25,053 nucleotides of DNA from Promethearchaeota archaeon (lineage in GTDB: Archaea > Asgardarchaeota > Lokiarchaeia > Sigyniarchaeales > SOKP01), in assembly GCA_011364925.1 (NCBI GenBank), contig RDOA01000052.1, positions 1 through 25,053 on the forward strand, read 5' to 3'. How positions within the stretch are numbered: position 1 is the first letter of the stretch; every line of letters begins with the position of its first letter. Under the pieces are notes generated by a model. That model made no database searches. It was not told the DNA's origin and was given only the letters and a program-made list of their open reading frames with translations. The translations under genes and the position numbers were made by a program. Below are positions 5,864 through 25,053 of the stretch, piece by piece.

Positions 5864-6679
5864 TTAAGAGGATACTTCATTTTCCGTTTTCTTCCCGTAA
5901 TACCTACTTATGAGGTAATAGGCTACAAACATTACAACTAAAATTGCTAGTATTATTAATAATACATTATTAAAGAACGCAGATTGTGCTTCAATTTCAG
6001 CTAATGGTAAAGACGCTAAATCAACAGGAGGCGTGATTCCTAATGTTGAGCCTAACCATGAATAAAAAAAAGCTCGAGGGATTGAACCAATAAAAGTCCC
6101 AATCGTATACTTTTTAAGATCCATGTCAACCAAACCAGAAGTGTAGCTAATAGGATCGAACGCTACAAAAGGTAAAAATCTAGCAATAATTATTGCTCCC
6201 ATACCGTATTTATGAATGAAGTTATCTGCTAAATTTATTGCCTTTTCTCCCACAAGCTTTTTAACTACGGGGCGACCTCCTTTTTTACTAATGTAAAAGC
6301 ATAGTAAACCTGCTGCCATGGAGCCAATAATTCCCATTATGCCACCGCCAAATATGCCCCATATTATCCCTGTGGCAAGAAGCACCAGTTCTGAGGGGAT
6401 TGGAACGATAAGTCCTTGAATGGCCATTACTACGATAAATATAAGAATACCGAAAAATCCCAAATACCAAATAGGATTTACAAACCAGTCTATCACAAAA
6501 CGATAAAGAATTGTGCTATCTACAAAATAAATGTAATAAAGCAAAACTAGTGAGAGAATAACTAATACAATAAAGATAATTATATACAAAATTGTTTTAG
6601 CATCATATTGAGAAAAGTTAAGAAGATTTTTGAAGTATTTCCTTAACTTACTTGAATTTGTATCATTAGCATCGCTCAT
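5864..6679 (-). CDS. DedA/VTT superfamily membrane protein (TVP38/TMEM64, SNARE-associated)
   Basis: Multiple TM helices; motifs PIPSE, GGRP and ARFLPFVAFDPISYTSG. ATG at 6679 preferred over TTG at 6688. Confidence 0.88.
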   Translation of the reverse strand: MSDANDTNSSKLRKYFKNLLNFSQYDAKTILYIIIFIVLVILSLVLLYYIYFVDSTILYRFVIDWFVNPIWYLGFFGILIFIVVMAIQGLIVPIPSELVLLATGIIWGIFGGGIMGIIGSMAAGLLCFYISKKGGRPVVKKLVGEKAINLADNFIHKYGMGAIIIARFLPFVAFDPISYTSGLVDMDLKKYTIGTFIGSIPRAFFYSWLGSTLGITPPVDLASLPLAEIEAQSAFFNNVLLIILAILVVMFVAYYLISRYYGKKTENEVSS

Positions 6680-6879
6680 TTTTATCAAATTTTACTAGTC
6701 ATTTAGGATGAATAAATAATTTAAATTTCTATATTAATTATGGTTTTTCAAAATTCAAAAGAAATGTTTTAAGATAAAAATAAAGATAATTCAAAACACG
6801 AGATTTAATAATGAAAAGAAAATAAGTTAATTCTAACTATCAAATTAGTTAAAAGTCAATAATAGTCAAAAAGAATAAG

Positions 6880-7698
6880 GTGTTTAAATTGAAATCTTGG
6901 TCAGAAATTAAGAAACTAACAATTTTTGTTCTTATTACATGGGTAGTTCTCGCTATCTTATTTGGTTTTTTCGATTTAGCCTTATCTATCGCAGTAGTAG
7001 ATGAGGCTTCGGTTTGGGGTCAATTTGGGGCTGATTACGGTGAAACACCGGGATACGCTCTTATCGCCGTTGCATTAGGAACGCTACTTGGGAGTCTTTT
7101 TACAAACTTAAAATTACAAAAAATTCCTGCTTATGTAGGAATAATCGTAGGAATCTTGTTTATTGTATTGATTGGAGACAAATCCTTTACTAAAACGGGA
7201 TGGAGCTTAATTATATCATTAACGATATTTGTAATATTAACCTGGAATAAAGACTGGAAGAACTATAGAAAAATCGCAGGTGTGATTGCACTATTAGCAC
7301 TTATTAATCCCCTCTTATTTGTACAAATTACGAAAATATTAGCCGGGAGGATAAGATTTAGAGATTTAGCTCTAGGTTACACTAACTTTACACCGTGGTT
7401 CTTACCACCTGGTATTTCTGCGGGAGGGAGTTCTTTTCCTTCAGGCCATGCAGCAATGTCATTCATGTTCGTTCCTCTCTTAATCCCTCTAAGTGAAATG
7501 TTAACTAAAGAAAGGAGTAAAAAGATTATTTCAGTCATACTTATGTTTATCGTAATTGGATGGGCGCTATTTGTTGCAGTTTCTAGAGTTGTCATAGGTG
7601 CTCACTATGCATCAGATGTTCTCTTTTCGGGTGGAATGGCTTGTATAATTACTATTTTACTATATAAATGGATTTATAGAACGAAGGGTTCGCAGTGA
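6880..7698 (+). CDS. PAP2 superfamily membrane phosphatase
   Basis: Catalytic motifs KILAGRIR, SFPSGH and SRVVIGAHYASD within a multi-TM protein. Confidence 0.9.
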   Translation: MFKLKSWSEIKKLTIFVLITWVVLAILFGFFDLALSIAVVDEASVWGQFGADYGETPGYALIAVALGTLLGSLFTNLKLQKIPAYVGIIVGILFIVLIGDKSFTKTGWSLIISLTIFVILTWNKDWKNYRKIAGVIALLALINPLLFVQITKILAGRIRFRDLALGYTNFTPWFLPPGISAGGSSFPSGHAAMSFMFVPLLIPLSEMLTKERSKKIISVILMFIVIGWALFVAVSRVVIGAHYASDVLFSGGMACIITILLYKWIYRTKGSQ

Positions 7699-7750
7699 AA
7701 TTTTAAAACCTCGTTTGTCTAACAAAAGGAAATATTAATTGGATTTGATT

Positions 7751-8413
7751 ATGAAAGAAATTATAAAAAATGTGTTTCATGTAGGAGATTCAGGCTGTTC
7801 AGTCTACTTAGTAAACACTAATAGCGAAGATGGGCTTGTTTTGATCGACAGCGGGATGAGTATTGAGATGATAAAGAAAATTAGTACGTATGGATTAAAT
7901 CCAACCAATATTAAGCATTGTATCATTACTCATTTTCACATAGATCATACTGCAGCTTGCTTTGATTTGAAAAGCCTAAACAAACAAGTTAAATTCTACG
8001 CTCACGATTTAGACGCTAATGCCATAGAAGAAAAAGGTCACGATAATAAAACTGCTGCTTCATGGTACGGCATCGATTATAATCCGGTGAAATTAGAGCG
8101 AAAGTTGAGAGGAAACTTGGAAACTCTCCGATTCGGAAATTACGACTTCCAGTGCATTCACACTCCTGGGCACACTCCAGGTTCTATTTCTATTTTGGTA
8201 GAAGTTGAAGGTACTAAAGTTCTTTTTGGTCAAGATATTCATGGACCGTTTTATAAATCCTTTGGGTCGAATCTTAACGATTATCAAAACTCGATGCAAA
8301 AACTCCTAGATGTGAAGCCTGATATTCTATGCGAAGGACATTTTGGTATAATTAAACCTGCAAGTGAAATAGAGCGTTTCATTAAAATGCACATGAGTTT
8401 GAATCGTCCCTAA
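7751..8413 (+). CDS. Metallo-beta-lactamase fold hydrolase (glyoxalase II-like)
   Basis: THFHIDH, HTPGHTPG, GQD and CEGH motifs. ATG at 7751 preferred over TTG at 7739. Confidence 0.9.
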   Translation: MKEIIKNVFHVGDSGCSVYLVNTNSEDGLVLIDSGMSIEMIKKISTYGLNPTNIKHCIITHFHIDHTAACFDLKSLNKQVKFYAHDLDANAIEEKGHDNKTAASWYGIDYNPVKLERKLRGNLETLRFGNYDFQCIHTPGHTPGSISILVEVEGTKVLFGQDIHGPFYKSFGSNLNDYQNSMQKLLDVKPDILCEGHFGIIKPASEIERFIKMHMSLNRP

Positions 8414-8486
8414 AAAAAGGGTGAAAGATTAGATATAACAATTCTAAATTAAAAAGAATTAATGGTTAAAAATTGGTGCTAAAATC

Positions 8487-11400
8487 TTATTTAGATTTGC
8501 TTTTAATAAATCGTATATTACTTTTTAGAACTTTTGTTATGGGAGATTTTTCTAAACCCCCTTGAACGAGTGTATCCAGCGCATCTTCATGATTTTTTAA
8601 AGCTTCCGCATAAGACTTCTGTTCTAAATAAGTTAATCCTAATCTATATTGGCTTTCAGCGATACCTTCAATTTCTTCTAGATCCTCGTATATCTTAAGA
8701 GCTTGGTTACATTTTTTCCAGGCGTCGGTGTATTTTCCTTCATTTAAGAATGCTAAACCTATATTATTCATGTATTTAGCGTTATTATGTCTGTCTTCGT
8801 TCCTCTCTGCGATCTGAGCTGCATCTTCAAAGCGCTTTAGTGCGACTGAATAATTTCCCTCATCCAGATATATCAAACCTATGTTGTTGAGACTTTCTGC
8901 TTTTCGGGTTAAATTCTTTATTTCATCATCGATTTTTATTGCTTCTTCAAAGGTTTTCAATGCATCGAGATTTTGTCCTTGATCTCTATAGATCATAGCA
9001 GTATTAAATAAATTCTCACCCCTCTCTTTCGATGGACCTAGTACCTTAAAGAGTTTTGTTCCACGATCGTACCACTTAAGGGCTTGATTGTATTCGCCTC
9101 GATCTTGATACACTAGCCCTATTTTATTTAGACAGAATGTCTTCCCAATTAAGTCACCAATCTGGTCGTAAATTTCAAGTGCTTCGTTGTAGCGTTTAAA
9201 GGCATCTTTATACACGCCTTGTTTGTGAAAGAGTACGCCAATTCTAGTAAGAATTCTAGCTGTCCTTTCTTCGTCGAAGATTTGTTCTGAAACTTTAAGA
9301 GCTTCATTGTTCCACTTAAGCGCTTCAGAATAATTATCTAATTCTTGATAAATTAAAGCTATACTTTCAAAACAATCAGCATTACCTTCTAAATTCTCAA
9401 TTTCGTCGAAAAGTCTATATGCCTCTTCGTACCACTTTAATGCTTCTTGATAATGATCCTGATCTCTAAAAATATCTCCAATTTTCCGTATAATCGTTGC
9501 TTGGTTGGTAAGATTGCCTATTTTCTCTTCTATTTCTAACGCTTCTTTATATCTGTTCAACACTTCAGTATATTTTTTGCGAACTAAAAAGATGTTACCT
9601 ATACATAAAAGCCGTTGGGCCTTTCCTTTCAAGTTTCCAAGTTGATCGTCAATAGTCATCGCTTCCTCGTACAGTTTTAAGGCTTCGAGAAAATTATCCT
9701 CATCGAAATAGATGTCTCCAATGCTTTGATAGATATCTGCTTTAATTTCCAAATTCCCTAAGCTCTCAGATACATAGATTGCTTCGTTGTATCTCCTTAC
9801 AGCTTCAGGATAATGCTTTTGTGCTTGATATATTTCGCCTATAATGTTAAGAATTTCAACTTGTTCCTCTAGATGTCCTAATTGATCCGCGATAAGTAAA
9901 GCTTCTTCGTAGCGTTTTAAGGCTTCAACGAAATCCCATTGTTCTCGGAAGATCTTACCTGAAATACTTAAACAAACGGACTTTTTGTGTAAATTTCCAA
10001 TTTGTTCAGAAATCTTAATCGCTTCTTCAAATTTCTCTAACGCTAAATCATCATTTCCAGTATAATGATTGTTTTGTCCAAGCAGATAAAGACTCTCTAT
10101 TTTCCCTTCCATATTATTTTCTTTCGTAAAAATTTCAAGGGCTTCTTCGAATCTCTGCATTGCTTGATCGTAATCTCCTTGATCTTGAAATATAACTCCG
10201 ACCATGTTTAGAAGTTCGGCCTTCTTTTCATCGGATCCAACTTTTTTAATAATGTCTAAAGCTTCTTTATATCTCCCTAAAGCGTCAGTTAAATTAGCTT
10301 GTTCAGCGTAATAATTTCCGATATTTTTCAAAGTTTCTGCAGTTCCATCAAGGTTTTCTGTTTCACTAAAAATTCGGAACGCTTCTTCAAAGTTGCTCAG
10401 AGATGCCGCGAAATCTCTTTGATCGAGATATAATTGACCAATAACCGTAAGAGTAGATGCTTGATTGTTTAAATCTTCAAGGTCTTCAAAAATTTCGTAA
10501 GCTTTTTCAAATTGTCTTAAAGCCTTTGGGTACGATCTCTGTTCCTTGTAGATTATGCCCATATTTGTCAATACGTCAACTTTTCCCTTCGTTTCTCCTG
10601 CTTGGTCGTAATATTTTATTGATTCTTCAAACCATTTTAATGCCTCAAAATGTTTATCTTGTTTCTGGAATATTGATCCAATCTGGTTTGAAAACTTAGC
10701 TTGTAGTGACACATTTCCCAATTTTTCAGCAATTTGAAAGCCTTCTTCGAAAAATTCAAACGCTTTAGGATAATTCCATTGATCTCTGTAAATGTTGCCT
10801 ATAGAATTAAGAGATTCAAGTTTACCTTCTACATTTTGTAGCAAGTCGTAAATTCTTAACGCTTCATTACATTTTTCTAAGCCGATTAGTGAATTTCCAG
10901 TCTCGTGAGATATTTGACCAATATAGTTGAGAATTTCGGCTCTATCTTCGAGATCTTCTAAGATCTCATTTATTTCCAGAGCATTTTTAAATTGAATCAA
11001 AGCGTCTTCGTAATTCTTCTTCGAATAGTAAATCTTTCCCTTGAGTTTATAGTTCATCGCTTTTTCGGAGAGATTCTCATACCTCTCGTTAAGTTTAATG
11101 GCTGATTCGAGGAATTTTAAAGCTTCTTCGTATTTTTCTTGATCATAGTGTATTATACCGAGTTGTTTTAGCATTTTAGATTTTTCATTAAAATCCTTTA
11201 GTTTTTCGTTCTCTTTAATGGCAAATTCGAAATTTTTAATCGCTTCTGTATAATTCTTTTGGGCTTGGTATGAAAGTCCTAAATACTTGAAAATTGATAC
11301 TACATGCGAAAATTTCTTGATTTTAATTTGAGCTGTTAAAGCTTTCCGTAGCCAATCAACTGCTGCTTTGTAATCCGATTGACTATAGTTGATAATGCCC

Positions 11401-15463: not shown

Positions 15464-16201
15464 ATGTCTAAAGAAGACGATTTGAAACAGGTAAACCTTG
15501 AGCTAGCAGAACTATTAAATAAAGAAATTAAAGACCAGAATTGCATTCTTGGCATCTCCATCTCGACTCACGGCGGAACGCACATCGTAAGCGAGTTAAA
15601 GGAGGACATCAAAATGACAAAAACAGAAATCGCCGCTGCGAGTAGTAGTTTAGTGTTTCTCTCGTCTAAAATGCTAAACGATTCGTTACAACAAAAAAGT
15701 TCGTATACATTAATTACCGGGAAAAAACGGATTATTCTCACTATCCTAACAGATTACATGGCCCTTATCTCCTACCTAGACAGGGAATTAGCAGAACTTG
15801 AAGGAGTAGACTATTACATCCGCACATTAAGAAAGCTCGCTATAAAAATGTCAGCAATCATAGAAACGAGCGACCTTATCAAAGAAGAGATTTTTGTGGC
15901 GTTAAAAAGAGCAATCCCTAACGCTCTAGTAATCGCTATTATTACAAAAGACGGATTACCCATCAAAGTCCAATCAACTATGCCGGAGCCTATTTTATCG
16001 GCAATGACCTCTGCGATTTATAATTTAGCAAGTGTTTTATTAGACGGAGGTTTAGAATTCTCTATAATTGGAGGAGAGCATGGTTCAATTATTATCCACG
16101 AACTAGACGAAAGCAGGATACTTGCAATCGCTGTCTCCGAAGGCGACGAAAAGATTCTTAGAAGCCACATCGCTAAAATCAAATCCATCATAAAACAATA
16201 G
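15464..16201 (+). CDS. Tandem Roadblock/LC7 (MglB-like) domain protein
   Basis: Two Roadblock units: ILGISISTHGGTHI...EIAAASSSL and LVIAIITKDGLPI...ILSAMTSAI...IIGGEHGSIII. Confidence 0.85.
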   Translation: MSKEDDLKQVNLELAELLNKEIKDQNCILGISISTHGGTHIVSELKEDIKMTKTEIAAASSSLVFLSSKMLNDSLQQKSSYTLITGKKRIILTILTDYMALISYLDRELAELEGVDYYIRTLRKLAIKMSAIIETSDLIKEEIFVALKRAIPNALVIAIITKDGLPIKVQSTMPEPILSAMTSAIYNLASVLLDGGLEFSIIGGEHGSIIIHELDESRILAIAVSEGDEKILRSHIAKIKSIIKQ

Positions 16202-19951: not shown

Positions 19952-21253
19952 ATGAGCAGATCATCAGATCTACAAAGAATCTTAGATAATTTAGTAGAAG
20001 AAATACCAGAGCTATTAGCAGCGTTAGTCGTAGACTTCAATGGTTTCATTATTGCTAAGAAATCAATAAAGAAATTTGACGATGAATTAATAGGAGGAAT
20101 AATGTCTCTTTTAGACGAAACTCTAAACAGAATAAAAAGTCTTACACAATCAGAATTAGGAAGCGGTTCATTTGATATAGATCAGTTCCGTTTGTTTTAT
20201 ATCCAATTAGGTAAAAATACGGGGGCGCTATTGGTATTGATTGGAGATCAATATTCCCATTTAGATAGATATGTTCCATATTCTTATATTATCGCGGATA
20301 AAATCTCTCTACTGCTGAGTAATTGTGATGTTGCTTGTAAGTTTCCAAGTATAACTGAAGATGCCGATCTTGTCTTAGACTCTAAAAGTAAAAATTTCAT
20401 TATAATAGGATCTGAAGCCGTTGGTAAATCCACTTTATCCAGACGAGTTTGCAACGACTCTTTTATCGAAAATTATCATCCTACGATAGGAGTGTCGGTT
20501 ATCGAAAAAGAATTGGAAACAAGACAAAATAAAACAGTTAAAGTTAACATATTTGACTTGTCCAGCCTAAAAAGTTTTGGAAAAGTACGAAGATATTTTT
20601 ATCAGTACTCAAGTGCTATTTTAATCATGTTTGATTATTCCAAAGAAGAAAGTCTTAACGAGGTTGAGAATTGGATAACAGAAGCAAGGCAATTTGTTAG
20701 TGATAAAGAGGTTCCCTTCTTAATTGTTGGAAATAAAGTCGATCTTGTTAATGATAACAATAATCTTAGAAAAAAAGCAGAAATGATCGCTTTAAATCAC
20801 AATTATCGGTTATTCGAAACATCTATACTAAATAATCAAGGTCTTGATGAAATTTTCGAGTACTTGATAAATGAAAGCTTTCAGGAAAAGGGTGATAAAG
20901 TAGTTGCAACTCCTATTACACCCAATTTTATAAAAAACTTAACTGAAGATGAAAAAATTGTGTTTATCTGTGATTTCGATTTTGAATCGTTAGATCAAAG
21001 CACATTTCCAAATGTGTTAGAGAAAAATATTATTAAAAATATTGCTGATAGTAAAGAAATTAGTTTAGCTATCCTGCACAGCAAGCTGATTCCTTTAGAG
21101 AAAGCTTTAAATCGAAAAATCGATAAAGATACAATTTTAAAAATTACTGATAAATATATTAAAAAAGGAAAAATTAAGCGCCAATTTCTGAAATTTGATG
21201 AAGACTTAGAAACAGTTAATAATTCAAATATTATACAGAAAGGAGATATTTGA
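19952..21253 (+). CDS. Roadblock + Rab/Ras-like small GTPase + C-terminal winged-helix-like domain fusion
   Basis: Roadblock-like N-terminus (AALVVDFNGFII). G1 GSEAVGKST, G2 YHPTIGV, degenerate G3 FDLSSL, G4 GNKVD, G5 ETSI. The C-terminal domain of about 110 aa is paralogous to that of the next gene. Confidence 0.85.
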   Translation: MSRSSDLQRILDNLVEEIPELLAALVVDFNGFIIAKKSIKKFDDELIGGIMSLLDETLNRIKSLTQSELGSGSFDIDQFRLFYIQLGKNTGALLVLIGDQYSHLDRYVPYSYIIADKISLLLSNCDVACKFPSITEDADLVLDSKSKNFIIIGSEAVGKSTLSRRVCNDSFIENYHPTIGVSVIEKELETRQNKTVKVNIFDLSSLKSFGKVRRYFYQYSSAILIMFDYSKEESLNEVENWITEARQFVSDKEVPFLIVGNKVDLVNDNNNLRKKAEMIALNHNYRLFETSILNNQGLDEIFEYLINESFQEKGDKVVATPITPNFIKNLTEDEKIVFICDFDFESLDQSTFPNVLEKNIIKNIADSKEISLAILHSKLIPLEKALNRKIDKDTILKITDKYIKKGKIKRQFLKFDEDLETVNNSNIIQKGDI

Positions 21254-21343
21254 TCTTTTTTATTTTAATAAATTTAAATATAACTTATATTACTATTAAT
21301 TCAAATTTTCACTATTTATTGATTTAATTCAATAAGGGAATTT

Positions 21344-21348
21344 GAGGT
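21344..21348 (+). promoter_or_regulatory. Shine-Dalgarno-like GAGGT ahead of a putative ATT start
   Basis: GAGGT lies 7 nt upstream of ATT-TCA-GAA at 21356, the start of the extended ORF. Confidence 0.5.
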
Positions 21349-21355
21349 AATTTTT

Positions 21356-21937
21356 ATTTCAGAAGTTATAACTGTTAGAAGCAATTGTCCAATTTGTAAC
21401 AAGATTATTGTTTTCGAATTAGAAACGGAATTTATCTTAAATTCAGAACGATTTCCTGTTCAATTTCTTATTGAACACTGTGAAAAATCTTTAATTGCTT
21501 ATATTGATGAGAATTTTGAAGTAAAGGGTATTGAACCCGTAGATAATATAATAAGCAAAAAGGAAAATGTTCAAGAAGATCATATCCGGGGTCAGCCGAT
21601 AACCTCTGAATTTATTCAAAAAATGTCACCAGAAGAAAAATTAGTATTGACCTCTAACTATGATTTTAATGAGTTAAAAACTCAACAATTTCCGAATGTC
21701 ATTGAAAAGCAAGTTTTATTGCAAATTTCTAAACATAATCATATTAGTGTGGCTGTCTTACTACAAAAACTCTCTGTTGTCAGTAAAGCAATTAATAAAC
21801 CTATTGATAAAGATTCCCTTTTAGGGATTGTTGATAAGTATATTGAAAAGGGTATTATAAATAAACATATGGTTAATCTTGAAAAAGAAAAATCTATCTA
21901 TAATAGTGGAATGAATTTGCGAGGGGATGTTATGTGA
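21356..21937 (+). CDS. Zn-binding (CPxC...HC) N-terminal domain + winged-helix-like domain protein, 193 aa; N-terminally extended relative to the ORF track
   Basis: The frame of the 21623 ORF is open back to the TGA at 21320 and reads SEVITVRSNCPICNKIIVFELETEFILNSERFPVQFLIEHCEKSLIAYIDENFEVKGIE.... Homology with the upstream protein's tail begins before Met 21623 (QPITSEFIQKM vs TPITPNFIKNL). Confidence 0.8.
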   Translation: MSEVITVRSNCPICNKIIVFELETEFILNSERFPVQFLIEHCEKSLIAYIDENFEVKGIEPVDNIISKKENVQEDHIRGQPITSEFIQKMSPEEKLVLTSNYDFNELKTQQFPNVIEKQVLLQISKHNHISVAVLLQKLSVVSKAINKPIDKDSLLGIVDKYIEKGIINKHMVNLEKEKSIYNSGMNLRGDVM

Positions 21938-22428
21938 AGATATTTAGAAGAAGAGATAAAGGAATGGATTCTAAATACTTAAATAGAATGATAATTGGAT
22001 TAGGCCATGGTTTGATTAGAACTAGAGATTTTATTTTAAATAAAGAATATGGTGTTTCGACGCAAGATGCGATGGACTCTTTAAGTATTTGGATCGGAAG
22101 AGAATTAATGAAAACAATGCTAGAGAATGGAGTGGTTAATGTTCGGGATTCTGACGAACGTTTAGTTAATGGCTTGATGGGGGTAATAAATTTAGCAGAC
22201 GAATTAGATGTGGAAGTAAAAAACGATCATATAAAACTTGTCGTCCAAAAATGCTTAATTTGCCCAAAAAGGATAGGTGGATATGATCTTGAAGGAAATA
22301 CCGCCTGCCCAGTAGGTGGCGTCCTAACCGGGGCAATTTCGTATGCGAGAGGAATAGATCCCACCGTCACTAAAAACCGACTTCAAACAGCAGAAATTTG
22401 TCATATCGAAATGGAGTATAATACATAA
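21934..22428 (+). CDS. V4R / methanogen-output / Bet3(TRAPP)-like fold protein
   Basis: Pattern IGREL...KLVVQKCLICP...ACPVGGVLTGAI...ICHIEM with V4R-type Cys ligands. The GTG start overlaps the upstream TGA (GTGA) after a GAGGGGA SD. Confidence 0.75.
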   Translation: MKIFRRRDKGMDSKYLNRMIIGLGHGLIRTRDFILNKEYGVSTQDAMDSLSIWIGRELMKTMLENGVVNVRDSDERLVNGLMGVINLADELDVEVKNDHIKLVVQKCLICPKRIGGYDLEGNTACPVGGVLTGAISYARGIDPTVTKNRLQTAEICHIEMEYNT

Positions 22429-22443
22429 TTTTTTTTTATTTTT
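22427..22443 (+). terminator. Oligo-T tract, probable archaeal terminator of the 19952-22428 module
   Basis: A run of 10 T followed by ATTTTT begins right at the V4R stop, in a convergent intergenic gap. Confidence 0.45.
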
Positions 22444-22501: not shown

Positions 22502-23500
22502 TCAAAATGCGAACTTCCTGGCAATTTCTGTAAGATTAGAGTTTAGGTGAGCTACAACGCTGTCCCATTTAGCCAAAATTGTATCAATTTTCGGAATGAT
22601 GCCCGATCTTTCTTTATACTCTAAATAATTGGTAAAAGCTCTAATATTTTCTACTTTAATGAAAGTTTCAGCAATGAATTTTCTAATATCTCGAGTTTGA
22701 TTAGTCAATACTTCTTGTATTCTGTGAGATTCTCCCTTGCGAGTAAGAGTTAGTAGGTATTCTTCAACACCTTGTAAAAGTGAATTTAATTCCGTAATCC
22801 TACTCGTAATATATTTATCGTAAAATTCGAACACATTTTCGCCAGAAAAAAAGTTTGCAATATCTATTGCTAACTTTTGACCCATTAGAACCATTTGTTC
22901 AGTATTTTCGAACCCATCAATCCTATAGTTTACTTCATAGAAATTGCTATATCTATCGCTAGGGTCTTCCATTCTAAATATTTTGAAACCAGGATCATCT
23001 CTTAATTGCTTGACGGGATCTCCTGCTTTTTGTGGTAATTCAATTTGTCTTATCAATCTTTCAGGATTAAAAACAAGCGCTATTGCTAACGGATTATATG
23101 CTTGGTAGGAGATAGTAGTTTTCCGATCTCCAAACCCAGAGAGCATTACTTTAAATCCTGGATGACTATGCCACCAGCCAACAGTGAATTCTCCTCTTGC
23201 GAAAGCCTCTTCATCAATCATGGCAAAAGACGCGTGATCCTCGTCGGAATATTCGTAGCCATCAATAATAGTGCGAGGATCGGACTCGTCTACATTTTCA
23301 TCGTTTGGATTAAAAGTATCGTGCATTATAGGATAAGCTGCAGATACATAAAGGTCTTTCTCATTATTATGTTCGATGATCTTTCCCGTAAAGATTCCAC
23401 TTGCCTCTTTCCAATCCTCTTTAGGTCGTTTTTTGTTAGCAAATCTCACGCAAGCTGCTACAACAGTAAAATACACTTCTTTAGGGATAATGACTGTCAT
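22502..23500 (-). CDS. MPN/JAMM domain protein with C-terminal helical region
   Basis: WKEASG (catalytic Glu position) and VGWWHSHPGFKVMLSGFGD, followed by about 130 aa of helical tail. Confidence 0.85.
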   Translation of the reverse strand: MTVIIPKEVYFTVVAACVRFANKKRPKEDWKEASGIFTGKIIEHNNEKDLYVSAAYPIMHDTFNPNDENVDESDPRTIIDGYEYSDEDHASFAMIDEEAFARGEFTVGWWHSHPGFKVMLSGFGDRKTTISYQAYNPLAIALVFNPERLIRQIELPQKAGDPVKQLRDDPGFKIFRMEDPSDRYSNFYEVNYRIDGFENTEQMVLMGQKLAIDIANFFSGENVFEFYDKYITSRITELNSLLQGVEEYLLTLTRKGESHRIQEVLTNQTRDIRKFIAETFIKVENIRAFTNYLEYKERSGIIPKIDTILAKWDSVVAHLNSNLTEIARKFAF

Positions 23501-24657: not shown

Positions 24658-25053
24658 ATGGGGAAGGATGTCGATATTAGCGTAGTAAGGATCAGACCTA
24701 ACGCTTATTATAAAATAATTCTACACGTTTTACGTTTTGGGAATAAAGCAAGAAATCACTCTCAATGCATCGAAGTCATGGGTGTGCTTATTGGACATCT
24801 GCAAGATGGTGACGATAAAAAATTTAAGGATGTGATCATAGAGGATGTAGTACCTATTTCCCACGGTAGCAGTGTAGAAGTTGAGTTTTCGATTAATGAT
24901 TACATATTTTTTGAAAAAGCTAATAATATGTATTTAGAGAAGGGCTGGTGGGTAGTGGGTTGGTACCATAGTCATCCGGCGCTGTTTCAACACCAAATAT
25001 TCTTTTCACCTACAGATGTAAAGAATCAATTTGGGTGGCAAAACGAATTAAAT
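24658..25053 (+). CDS. MPN+/JAMM metalloprotease (Rpn11/CSN5-like), 3'-truncated; absent from the ORF track
   Basis: Manual translation: MGKDVDISVVRIRPNAYYKIILHVLRFGNKARNHSQCIEVMGVLIG...VVGWYHSHPALFQHQIFFSPTDVKNQFGWQNELN, open to the window end. Confidence 0.9.
   Translation, partial: MGKDVDISVVRIRPNAYYKIILHVLRFGNKARNHSQCIEVMGVLIGHLQDGDDKKFKDVIIEDVVPISHGSSVEVEFSINDYIFFEKANNMYLEKGWWVVGWYHSHPALFQHQIFFSPTDVKNQFGWQNELN

Follow-up and report, generated by a model that had tools for sequence, protein, structure and literature searches.

Which proteins act together with the small GTPases of Asgard archaea? Each Asgard genome encodes dozens of these GTPases, and the lack of operons hampers their matching to GTPase-activating proteins (GAPs) or guanine nucleotide exchange factors (GEFs) (Tran et al., 2024, PMC10933270). 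The question is raised by three neighbouring genes of a Promethearchaeota archaeon (contig RDOA01000052.1, assembly GCA_011364925.1), which the open reading frame (ORF) listing places on the forward strand, within positions 19952–22428 of the analyzed window, a stretch of 25,053 nt (Table 1). Gene 1 encodes a Roadblock-like domain, a small GTPase and a C-terminal domain, here called X; gene 2 encodes a putative zinc domain followed by a second X (zinc-X); and gene 3 encodes a small protein with a predicted V4R/Bet3 fold. A sequence-only reading of this stretch had suggested a switch in which two alternative inputs would converge, by way of X, on either gene 3 or DNA. According to our analysis, the data show that X and gene 3 form a conserved functional unit, which small GTPases have joined several times, once by fusion to X.

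Conservation of the X–gene 3 pair and its GTPases

The gene 3 profile was run over 301 Asgard genomes, and 26 strong loci were scanned with hidden Markov models for each part of the set; the genome samples were draws, and absence here means not found among the genomes searched. The gene 3 family was present in 36 of the 301 genomes and in 18 of 70 genera, its homologues coming from metagenome-assembled genomes (MAGs) labelled Promethearchaeota, Hermodarchaeota, and Thorarchaeota, and also from Promethearchaeum syntrophicum MK-D1 (orthologue WP_147665075.1). In all 26 strong loci, from at least eight families, gene 3 was directly preceded by a same-strand ORF containing X, which usually abutted or overlapped it. 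The upstream protein was mostly zinc-X, had a different N-terminus in a few loci, and consisted of X alone (87–98 aa) in three; the invariant pair is therefore X and gene 3, X being enough without the zinc domain in some lineages. A small GTPase was encoded within 1.5 kb of the pair, or fused, at 15/26 loci (families f1, f11, and f26), against a baseline of 1/30 loci across the phylum for a GTPase near a canonical V4R gene. The linkage of the genes, on which the sequence-only reading had staked its validity, is thus conserved. A general adjacency of V4R and GTPase genes was rejected for canonical V4R proteins on the basis of the same 1/30 loci.

The position of the GTPase differed between families. 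In f11 (10 loci) and f26 (one locus), a free GTPase of 170–200 aa was encoded directly upstream of zinc-X. In f1, the family of the window, the Roadblock-GTPase-X fusion stood either before the pair (window and genome G010) or after it (G199 and G250). In genome G023, a tandem of zinc-X, gene 3, Roadblock-GTPase-X, and a second gene 3, all abutting or overlapping, occupied positions 6293–9188 of locus L008 (G023:C19); each X protein there has its own gene 3 paralogue directly after it, which indicates a 1:1 relation between X and gene 3. Hence, the invariant core is X plus gene 3, and the GTPase has joined it repeatedly. The GTPase had been read as an integral part of the module; it is indeed recurrently linked, but usually as a separate small protein and from different clades.

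The linked GTPases of different families showed no reciprocal best hits and fell into separate supported clades of the tree; the source genome has about 60 small GTPases. A single clade of linked GTPases was rejected by the approximately unbiased (AU) test with p = 1.6e-49, a value inflated by the few non-linked paralogues that nest inside the f11 clade, the test having been run after inspection of the tree. Orthology of the linked GTPases was rejected on these three grounds.

Folds and motifs of the three proteins

The AlphaFold2 (AF2) model of gene 3, built from 31 homologues, had a predicted local distance difference test score (pLDDT) of 80. In a VIA structure search with this model, all 16 top rows belonged to the V4R/Bet3/H-NOX fold class. 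The named matches were PoxR (Z 9.2), DmpR (9.1), TRAPP subunits (9.0–8.2), Thor-TRAPPC3 (8.2), and the V4R protein MJ1460 (7.7), and the entries included 5fru (Z 9.2, 138 aa aligned), 6iy8 (9.1), 7b6d_F (9.0), 3cue_B (8.5), 7yh2 (8.2), and 2oso (7.7); BcsD, YslB, and H-NOX (Z 7.3) also stood among the top rows. Foldseek gave a template modelling (TM) score of about 0.5 between the model and Bet3, and the language-model neighbours of gene 3 all belonged to one clan (RdxA_C, MJ0207, TRAPP, V4R, ATC_hydrolase, and MetOD1; scores 0.90–0.93). Judged by its model, the gene 3 protein has the V4R/Bet3/H-NOX fold, and the fold whose presence the sequence-only reading had made decisive is borne out by the AF2 model with VIA, by Foldseek, and by the embedding.

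At the level of sequence profiles, 85 of 86 gene 3 homologues, the window protein included, carry PF27343, an uncharacterized family (Atlas name MJ0207), in precomputed annotation. PF02830 (V4R) matched neither gene 3 nor its 31 homologues at E ≤ 10 and found three other loci in the genome scan; PF04051 (TRAPP Bet3) matched neither gene 3 nor its homologues; and PF18546 (MetOD1) gave no match to gene 3 either in the genome scan (E ≤ 0.1) or in the Pfam searches of gene 3 and its homologues, while UniRef names the MK-D1 orthologue MetOD1. Searches of gene 3 against local Pfam and NCBIfam gave no match above threshold, the PDB-sequence profile search gave none, and the gene 3 profile showed no similarity by hhalign to two V4R-like proteins encoded in this genome. 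The family evolves slowly (55–90% identity across families) and carries the motif C107-x2-C110-PKR-x-GGYDL ... C125-P-x-GG ... C156-H, invariant or nearly so: the four cysteines C107, C110, C125, and C156 are conserved in the 31 sequences, and H157 is nearly invariant. Judged from the residues, this cluster may correspond to the Cys-bound zinc site of PoxR and Thor-TRAPPC3 (PMC10933270); it also recalls the cluster of MetOD1 (PMC5847659).

Two other small V4R-like genes of the source genome, G000 (C20:22630-24018 and C29:36182-38029), were observed directly downstream of small GTPase genes on the same strand; this pattern is not shared by the long canonical V4R proteins from other parts of the phylum (1/30).

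The C-terminal domain that genes 1 and 2 had been said to share is clearly recognizable, with 48/126 identities (38%) and an E-value of 1e-28 between the two copies; in gene 1 it comprises about 115 residues. The AF2 model of gene 2 (pLDDT 84) contains a winged helix at residues ~112–172, preceded by a short helical extension, with the elements H115–127, E129–131, H132–146, H152–164, and E168–172 (H1-b-H2-H3-b topology). In the VIA search with X, the 50 best matches were all winged helices (Z 8.2–5.8), so that a new fold was rejected and X is, as modelled, a winged helix. The best match was to 8fw5_C, a winged helix in a GATOR1 subunit (Z 8.2), only about one Z unit above many unrelated winged helices; PerR/Fur, the cullin WHB domain, and the SEA complex (Z 7.0) followed at Z ~7. 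Since these values are nearly tied, the structure matches cannot tell a DNA-binding winged helix from a protein-binding one. The fold was resolved only by the wide VIA search: Foldseek with the gene 2 model gave no match at E ≤ 0.001, the profile search with X found no PDB-sequence match, and neither gene 2 nor X matched Pfam or NCBIfam above threshold, PF24101 reaching 9 of 37 X members below its own threshold.

The winged-helix core of X is basic, with a median isoelectric point (pI) of 9.6, and its third, putative recognition, helix carries the conserved pattern I-D-x3-L-x-I-x-D-K-Y-V-x-K-G. The X profile found only 43 clusters among 1.84 billion representatives, and X stood at or near the C-terminus wherever the whole protein was listed among these clusters. 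In the window's family, the two X proteins share a conserved C-terminal tail of the form ..(L/Q)(R/K)GD(V/I)x (window 21889–21934 and 21206–21250), which is predicted to be disordered (pLDDT < 50) and which the MK-D1-type and f11 proteins lack.

The N-terminal domain of gene 2, read earlier as metal-binding, keeps its C, P, C, H, and C residues invariant, which supports a putative zinc site at the level of the motif. The domain (CPxC..H(C)..YIDxNxxVRG) has no local Pfam model and matched 204 of the 301 Asgard genomes, where it also occurs in other proteins; for this reason, a co-occurrence scan with the full zinc-X profile is uninformative for X. About eight paralogues of the domain are present in the source genome, two of them fused to other winged helices of TrmB/HTH_47-like type. 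One paralogue and a small GTPase gene are convergent, with 5 nt between them.

Gene 1 has ~25 full-length homologues in Asgard MAGs. Its Ras-like GTPase, proposed from the sequence, was confirmed by Pfam Ras (PF00071, 112 bits with a cut-off of 21.6) and by TIGR00231 small_GTP (75 bits with a cut-off of 42.5; E 5e-21). The Roadblock assignment of the N-terminus stood in profile–profile comparison, where hhalign against a profile of 17 Robl_LC7 proteins from the same genome gave 94.8% probability and E 5.3e-8 over 77 columns, but not in direct comparison with the Pfam model: PF03259 did not match the gene 1 protein at E ≤ 1, and gene 1 was absent from the 22 genome matches of PF03259 at E ≤ 0.01. 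P0127, a 317-aa relative of gene 1, does carry PF03259. The GTPase motifs G1 (GSEAVGKS), G2 (T178), and G4 (NKVD) are intact, and G3 (window 20555–20569) reads DLSSL, without the DxxG glycine and without the catalytic Gln. The Gln is missing from every member of the Roadblock-GTPase(-X) family, relatives reading DLGGL or DLSGL, and the glycine has been lost solely in the clade of the window; the linked GTPases of f11 retain DxxGQ.

A candidate signalling module and competing explanations

The data would fit an Asgard-specific signalling module in which X docks gene 3 as the partner of a GTPase and of which the window holds one lineage's version; reasoning largely by analogy, we give this reading an even chance. 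Because of the 1:1 tandem pairs of X and gene 3 in G023 and the translational coupling that is frequent between the two genes, we infer that X may serve as the docking domain for gene 3, in which case both zinc-X and Roadblock-GTPase-X proteins would assemble on gene 3. By analogy with TRAPP and the V4R sensors, gene 3 could partner the GTPase in a ligand-binding or regulatory role, whether as exchange factor, effector, or sensor. In the window's family the Roadblock-GTPase has acquired its own copy of X, whereas in several other families a free ~180-aa GTPase gene stands just upstream; the fusion may tether the GTPase covalently to a partner that the free GTPases of other lineages would meet non-covalently. 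Since the window GTPase lacks both the catalytic Gln and the DxxG glycine, it would probably depend on partners or represent a slow or locked switch. Physical contact between X and gene 3, the direction of the regulation, and the ligand would in each case be presumed from this layout and these analogies.

Several observations weigh against a GTPase-partner module. The structural Z values of 8–9 for gene 3 are moderate, and gene 3 has no profile similarity to V4R, TRAPP_Bet3, or MetOD1, its link to them being through the fold, the Cys pattern, and the embedding only. The core of X is basic, and its matches to the DNA-binding winged helices of Fur, PerR, and MarR are about as good as those to protein-binding ones. 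At 11 of the 26 loci no GTPase was found within 1.5 kb, the MK-D1-type cultured genome being among these; two of the 11 belong to f20, where a wider stretch of one genome showed the GTPase one gene further away. The module also has a patchy distribution, with 2 of 24 other congeneric genomes carrying it in the first draw, and the T6 tract 3' of gene 1 suggests its separate transcription.

Part of this evidence would suit a split, ligand-responsive transcription regulator, in which X binds DNA, gene 3 senses a small molecule, and the GTPase only modulates the response. In structure, gene 3 best matches the V4R domains by which PoxR (Z 9.2) and DmpR (Z 9.1) sense phenol, X resembles the DNA-binding winged helices of Fur, PerR, MecI, and MarR at Z 6–7.2 and has a basic core (pI about 9.6), zinc-domain paralogues are fused to TrmB/HTH_47-like winged helices, and many loci have no adjacent GTPase. 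However, the best match of X is the protein-binding winged helix of GATOR1 (Z 8.2), the winged helices of cullin, ESCRT-II, and RPA32 score like the DNA binders, and the pattern of the putative recognition helix is acidic and hydrophobic, in contrast to the polar and basic one of typical DNA readers. Moreover, such a regulator leaves unexplained the repeated recruitment of different GTPases and the fusion of X to one of them, and we regard this main competitor as somewhat unlikely, albeit worth serious consideration. A narrower idea, to which we assign a lower probability still, is that gene 3 proteins are prokaryotic small-GTPase regulators with the Bet3 fold, forming a minimal 'proto-TRAPP' that gates or catalyzes nucleotide exchange on the GTPase linked to it in the genome: by analogy, a V4R/Bet3-fold dimer would be docked via a winged-helix adaptor, with the addition here of a cis Roadblock platform. 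If this were true, Asgard genome layout would for the first time have made a cognate GTPase-regulator set recognizable.

The strict conservation of C-I-C-P-K-R-x-G-G-Y-D-L and of four Cys and one His, beyond a purely structural need, brings to mind an enzyme or a handler of metals or cofactors (ATC-hydrolase-like C–S chemistry or a redox Cys4 site), with zinc-X and the GTPase acting in maturation or delivery. An enzymatic role has been proposed for the related MetOD1 (Galperin et al., PMC5847659), and the language-model neighbours closest to gene 3 include the ATC_hydrolase and RdxA_C clusters. Yet the loci inspected show no conserved metabolic genes in the surroundings of the module. To our knowledge, the GTPases of metallocentres are G3E/SIMIBI proteins, not Ras-like ones, which also speaks against such a role. 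In addition, the apparently equivalent cysteines hold a structural zinc in PoxR and Thor-TRAPPC3 (PMC10933270), and an enzyme or metal handler appears improbable to us. Finally, the three genes could be unrelated neighbours that are not functionally coupled and whose shared domain goes back to a recent local duplication; genes 1 and 2 are indeed separated by a T6 tract and a 100-nt spacer, and relatives differ in where gene 1 lies with respect to genes 2 and 3. Against this stand the adjacency of X and gene 3 in 26/26 loci and at least eight families, GTPase linkage in four families compared with the 1/30 baseline, and the 4-nt overlap of genes 2 and 3. Chance adjacency is effectively excluded, and a mere neighbourhood of unrelated genes is scarcely credible.

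The TRAPP core consists of Bet3-family and longin subunits and is a GEF for Rab. The present set resembles it in its Bet3-type fold (Z 8–9), Rab/Ras-like GTPase, and Roadblock/longin-type platform domain; unlike TRAPP, gene 3 has no PF04051 match and keeps a putative V4R-like site of Cys4 type, and its partner is a winged-helix protein. The clan of the PoxR/DmpR/MopR V4R domains, MetOD1, ATC-hydrolase, and H-NOX supplies the best structural matches of gene 3 and all its nearest language-model neighbours, and gene 3 has a conserved Cys cluster that recalls theirs, but it stands alone (164 aa), without fusion to AAA+/HTH or REC, and is annotated to a separate Pfam family (PF27343, MJ0207). The combination of GTPase and Roadblock, together with the best match of X to a GATOR1 winged helix, is reminiscent of Rag/Ragulator/GATOR1. 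In contrast to Rag, with its N-terminal GTPase and C-terminal Roadblock, gene 1 has the reverse order, and by Pfam its GTPase is Ras/Rab-like, not Rag/Arf-like.

Among Asgard proteins, the same building blocks have been described. RB-GTPase and GTPase-RB architectures (RB, Roadblock) are reported for MK-D1, as are zinc-binding proteins of the TRAPPC3/V4R fold in Thor, MK-D1 (two proteins), and Heimdall, and GTPase genes of MK-D1 generally share no operon with genes for RB, longin, or TRAPPC3 (Tran et al., 2024, PMC10933270). WP_147665075.1 is neither of the two MK-D1 V4R/TRAPPC3 proteins, and that work, on the same phylum, describes neither domain X nor the zinc-X protein nor the conserved gene set. 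Conserved Asgard neighbourhoods are known, including ESCRT and an operon of LAMTOR1-like Roadblock, Rab-like GTPase, and DENN genes (Liu et al., bioRxiv 10.1101/2020.10.19.343400). The latter is, like the present set, one of the few that pair a small GTPase with candidate regulators, but here the partners are a winged helix and a V4R fold, and the present set is unmentioned there. The literature searched contained no description of the winged-helix/gene 3/GTPase gene set and no mention of MJ0207. The architecture had been offered as possibly unreported, and this holds only in part: Roadblock-GTPase fusions and V4R/TRAPPC3-like proteins are known (PMC10933270) and gene 3 is annotated as PF27343, whereas the gene set was not found. 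Thus, neither the conserved module nor the X family nor the fusion architecture appears to have been described in the searched literature, and their building blocks are of known kinds.

A conserved, often translationally coupled set that joins a Bet3/V4R-fold protein and a winged-helix adaptor to a specific GTPase offers concrete cognate partners for expression and assay, and assays of the GTPase with its partners bear on whether the use of a TRAPP-type Bet3 fold with a Rab-like GTPase predates eukaryotes. Furthermore, the analysis defines two uncharacterized Asgard domains, the X winged helix and the widespread CPxC..HC zinc domain.

Arrangement of the locus

The three genes had been described as co-oriented and ending in a T-tract, and both features were found again in the ORFs and the T9 tract, which is likely an archaeal terminator judging from its position. 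Gene 2 terminates in ATG-TGA at 21932–21937 and gene 3 starts with the GTG at 21934, which gives the 4-nt GTGA overlap on which translational coupling had been proposed; the GTG start is backed by an MKIF N-terminus conserved among homologues. An AT-rich spacer of 100 nt separates genes 1 and 2 after the T6 tract, a possible internal terminator, and on account of tract and spacer gene 1 may form a transcription unit apart from genes 2–3.

The stop-to-stop frame of gene 2 (21323–21937, forward strand) contains no ATG, GTG, or TTG in 21323–21622, the first canonical start being at 21623, and the 89 codons before it encode a conserved domain. The ten gene 2 homologues examined have ATG or TTG at the equivalent site, mostly 8–10 codons 5' of the CxxC motif, and in MK-D1-type homologues TGAGGT precedes the TTG start. 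The ATT at 21356 is likely the start codon, since it aligns with the ATG/TTG starts of the homologues, the conserved domain extends upstream of the first canonical start, and a GAGGT lies 7 nt before it. A standard gene caller would cut gene 2 to 104 aa for want of a canonical start.

Table 1. Coordinates of the features discussed (positions in the window unless a contig of source genome G000 is named).
Feature	Position	Strand	Content or basis
Gene 1	19952..21253	+	433 aa: Roadblock, Ras-like GTPase, X (winged helix)
Roadblock/LC7-like domain, gene 1 residues 1–130	19952..20341	+	hhalign against the genome's own Robl_LC7 profile
Small GTPase domain, gene 1 residues 148–309	20393..20878	+	Pfam Ras E 2.8e-32, Roc 5.8e-24
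Domain X copy 1, gene 1 C-terminus	20897..21250	+	winged helix plus conserved ..KGDI tail
T6 tract right after gene 1 stop	21256..21261	+	read from sequence; putative internal terminator
Shine-Dalgarno-like GAGGT	21344..21348	+	7 nt 5' of ATT 21356
Gene 2	21356..21937	+	193 aa if ATT 21356 is the start; zinc domain (CPxC..HC) and X
Putative zinc N-domain, gene 2 residues 1–62	21356..21541	+	five strands (model); invariant C11 P12 C14 H41 C42
Domain X copy 2, gene 2 residues 84–175	21605..21880	+	extended winged helix; AF2 pLDDT > 90
Gene 3	21934..22428	+	164 aa, predicted V4R/Bet3/H-NOX-fold protein, annotated as PF27343 (MJ0207)
T9 tract	22429..22437	+	read from sequence; directly after gene 3 TAA stop
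Zinc-domain paralogue, G000	C30:17917-18513
Zinc-domain paralogue, G000	C70:106625-107167
Zinc-domain paralogue, G000	C11:77307-77885
Zinc-domain paralogue, G000	C104:1222-2109
Zinc-domain paralogue, G000	C59:49624-50160
Zinc-domain paralogue, G000	C38:154108-156285
Zinc-domain paralogue, G000	C53:20090-20329

Beyond the module, two genes for JAB/MPN-domain proteins (22502–23500 on the reverse strand and 24658–25053 on the forward strand) flank a gene whose 206-aa product carries a double zinc ribbon at its C-terminus; the JAB/MPN genes are convergent to or downstream of the module, and the related loci that were inspected do not keep them beside it. A Robl_LC7 match at window positions 15914–16129 (forward strand), with 23 bits, equal to the cut-off, falls within a 250-aa open frame some kilobases 5' of the module.

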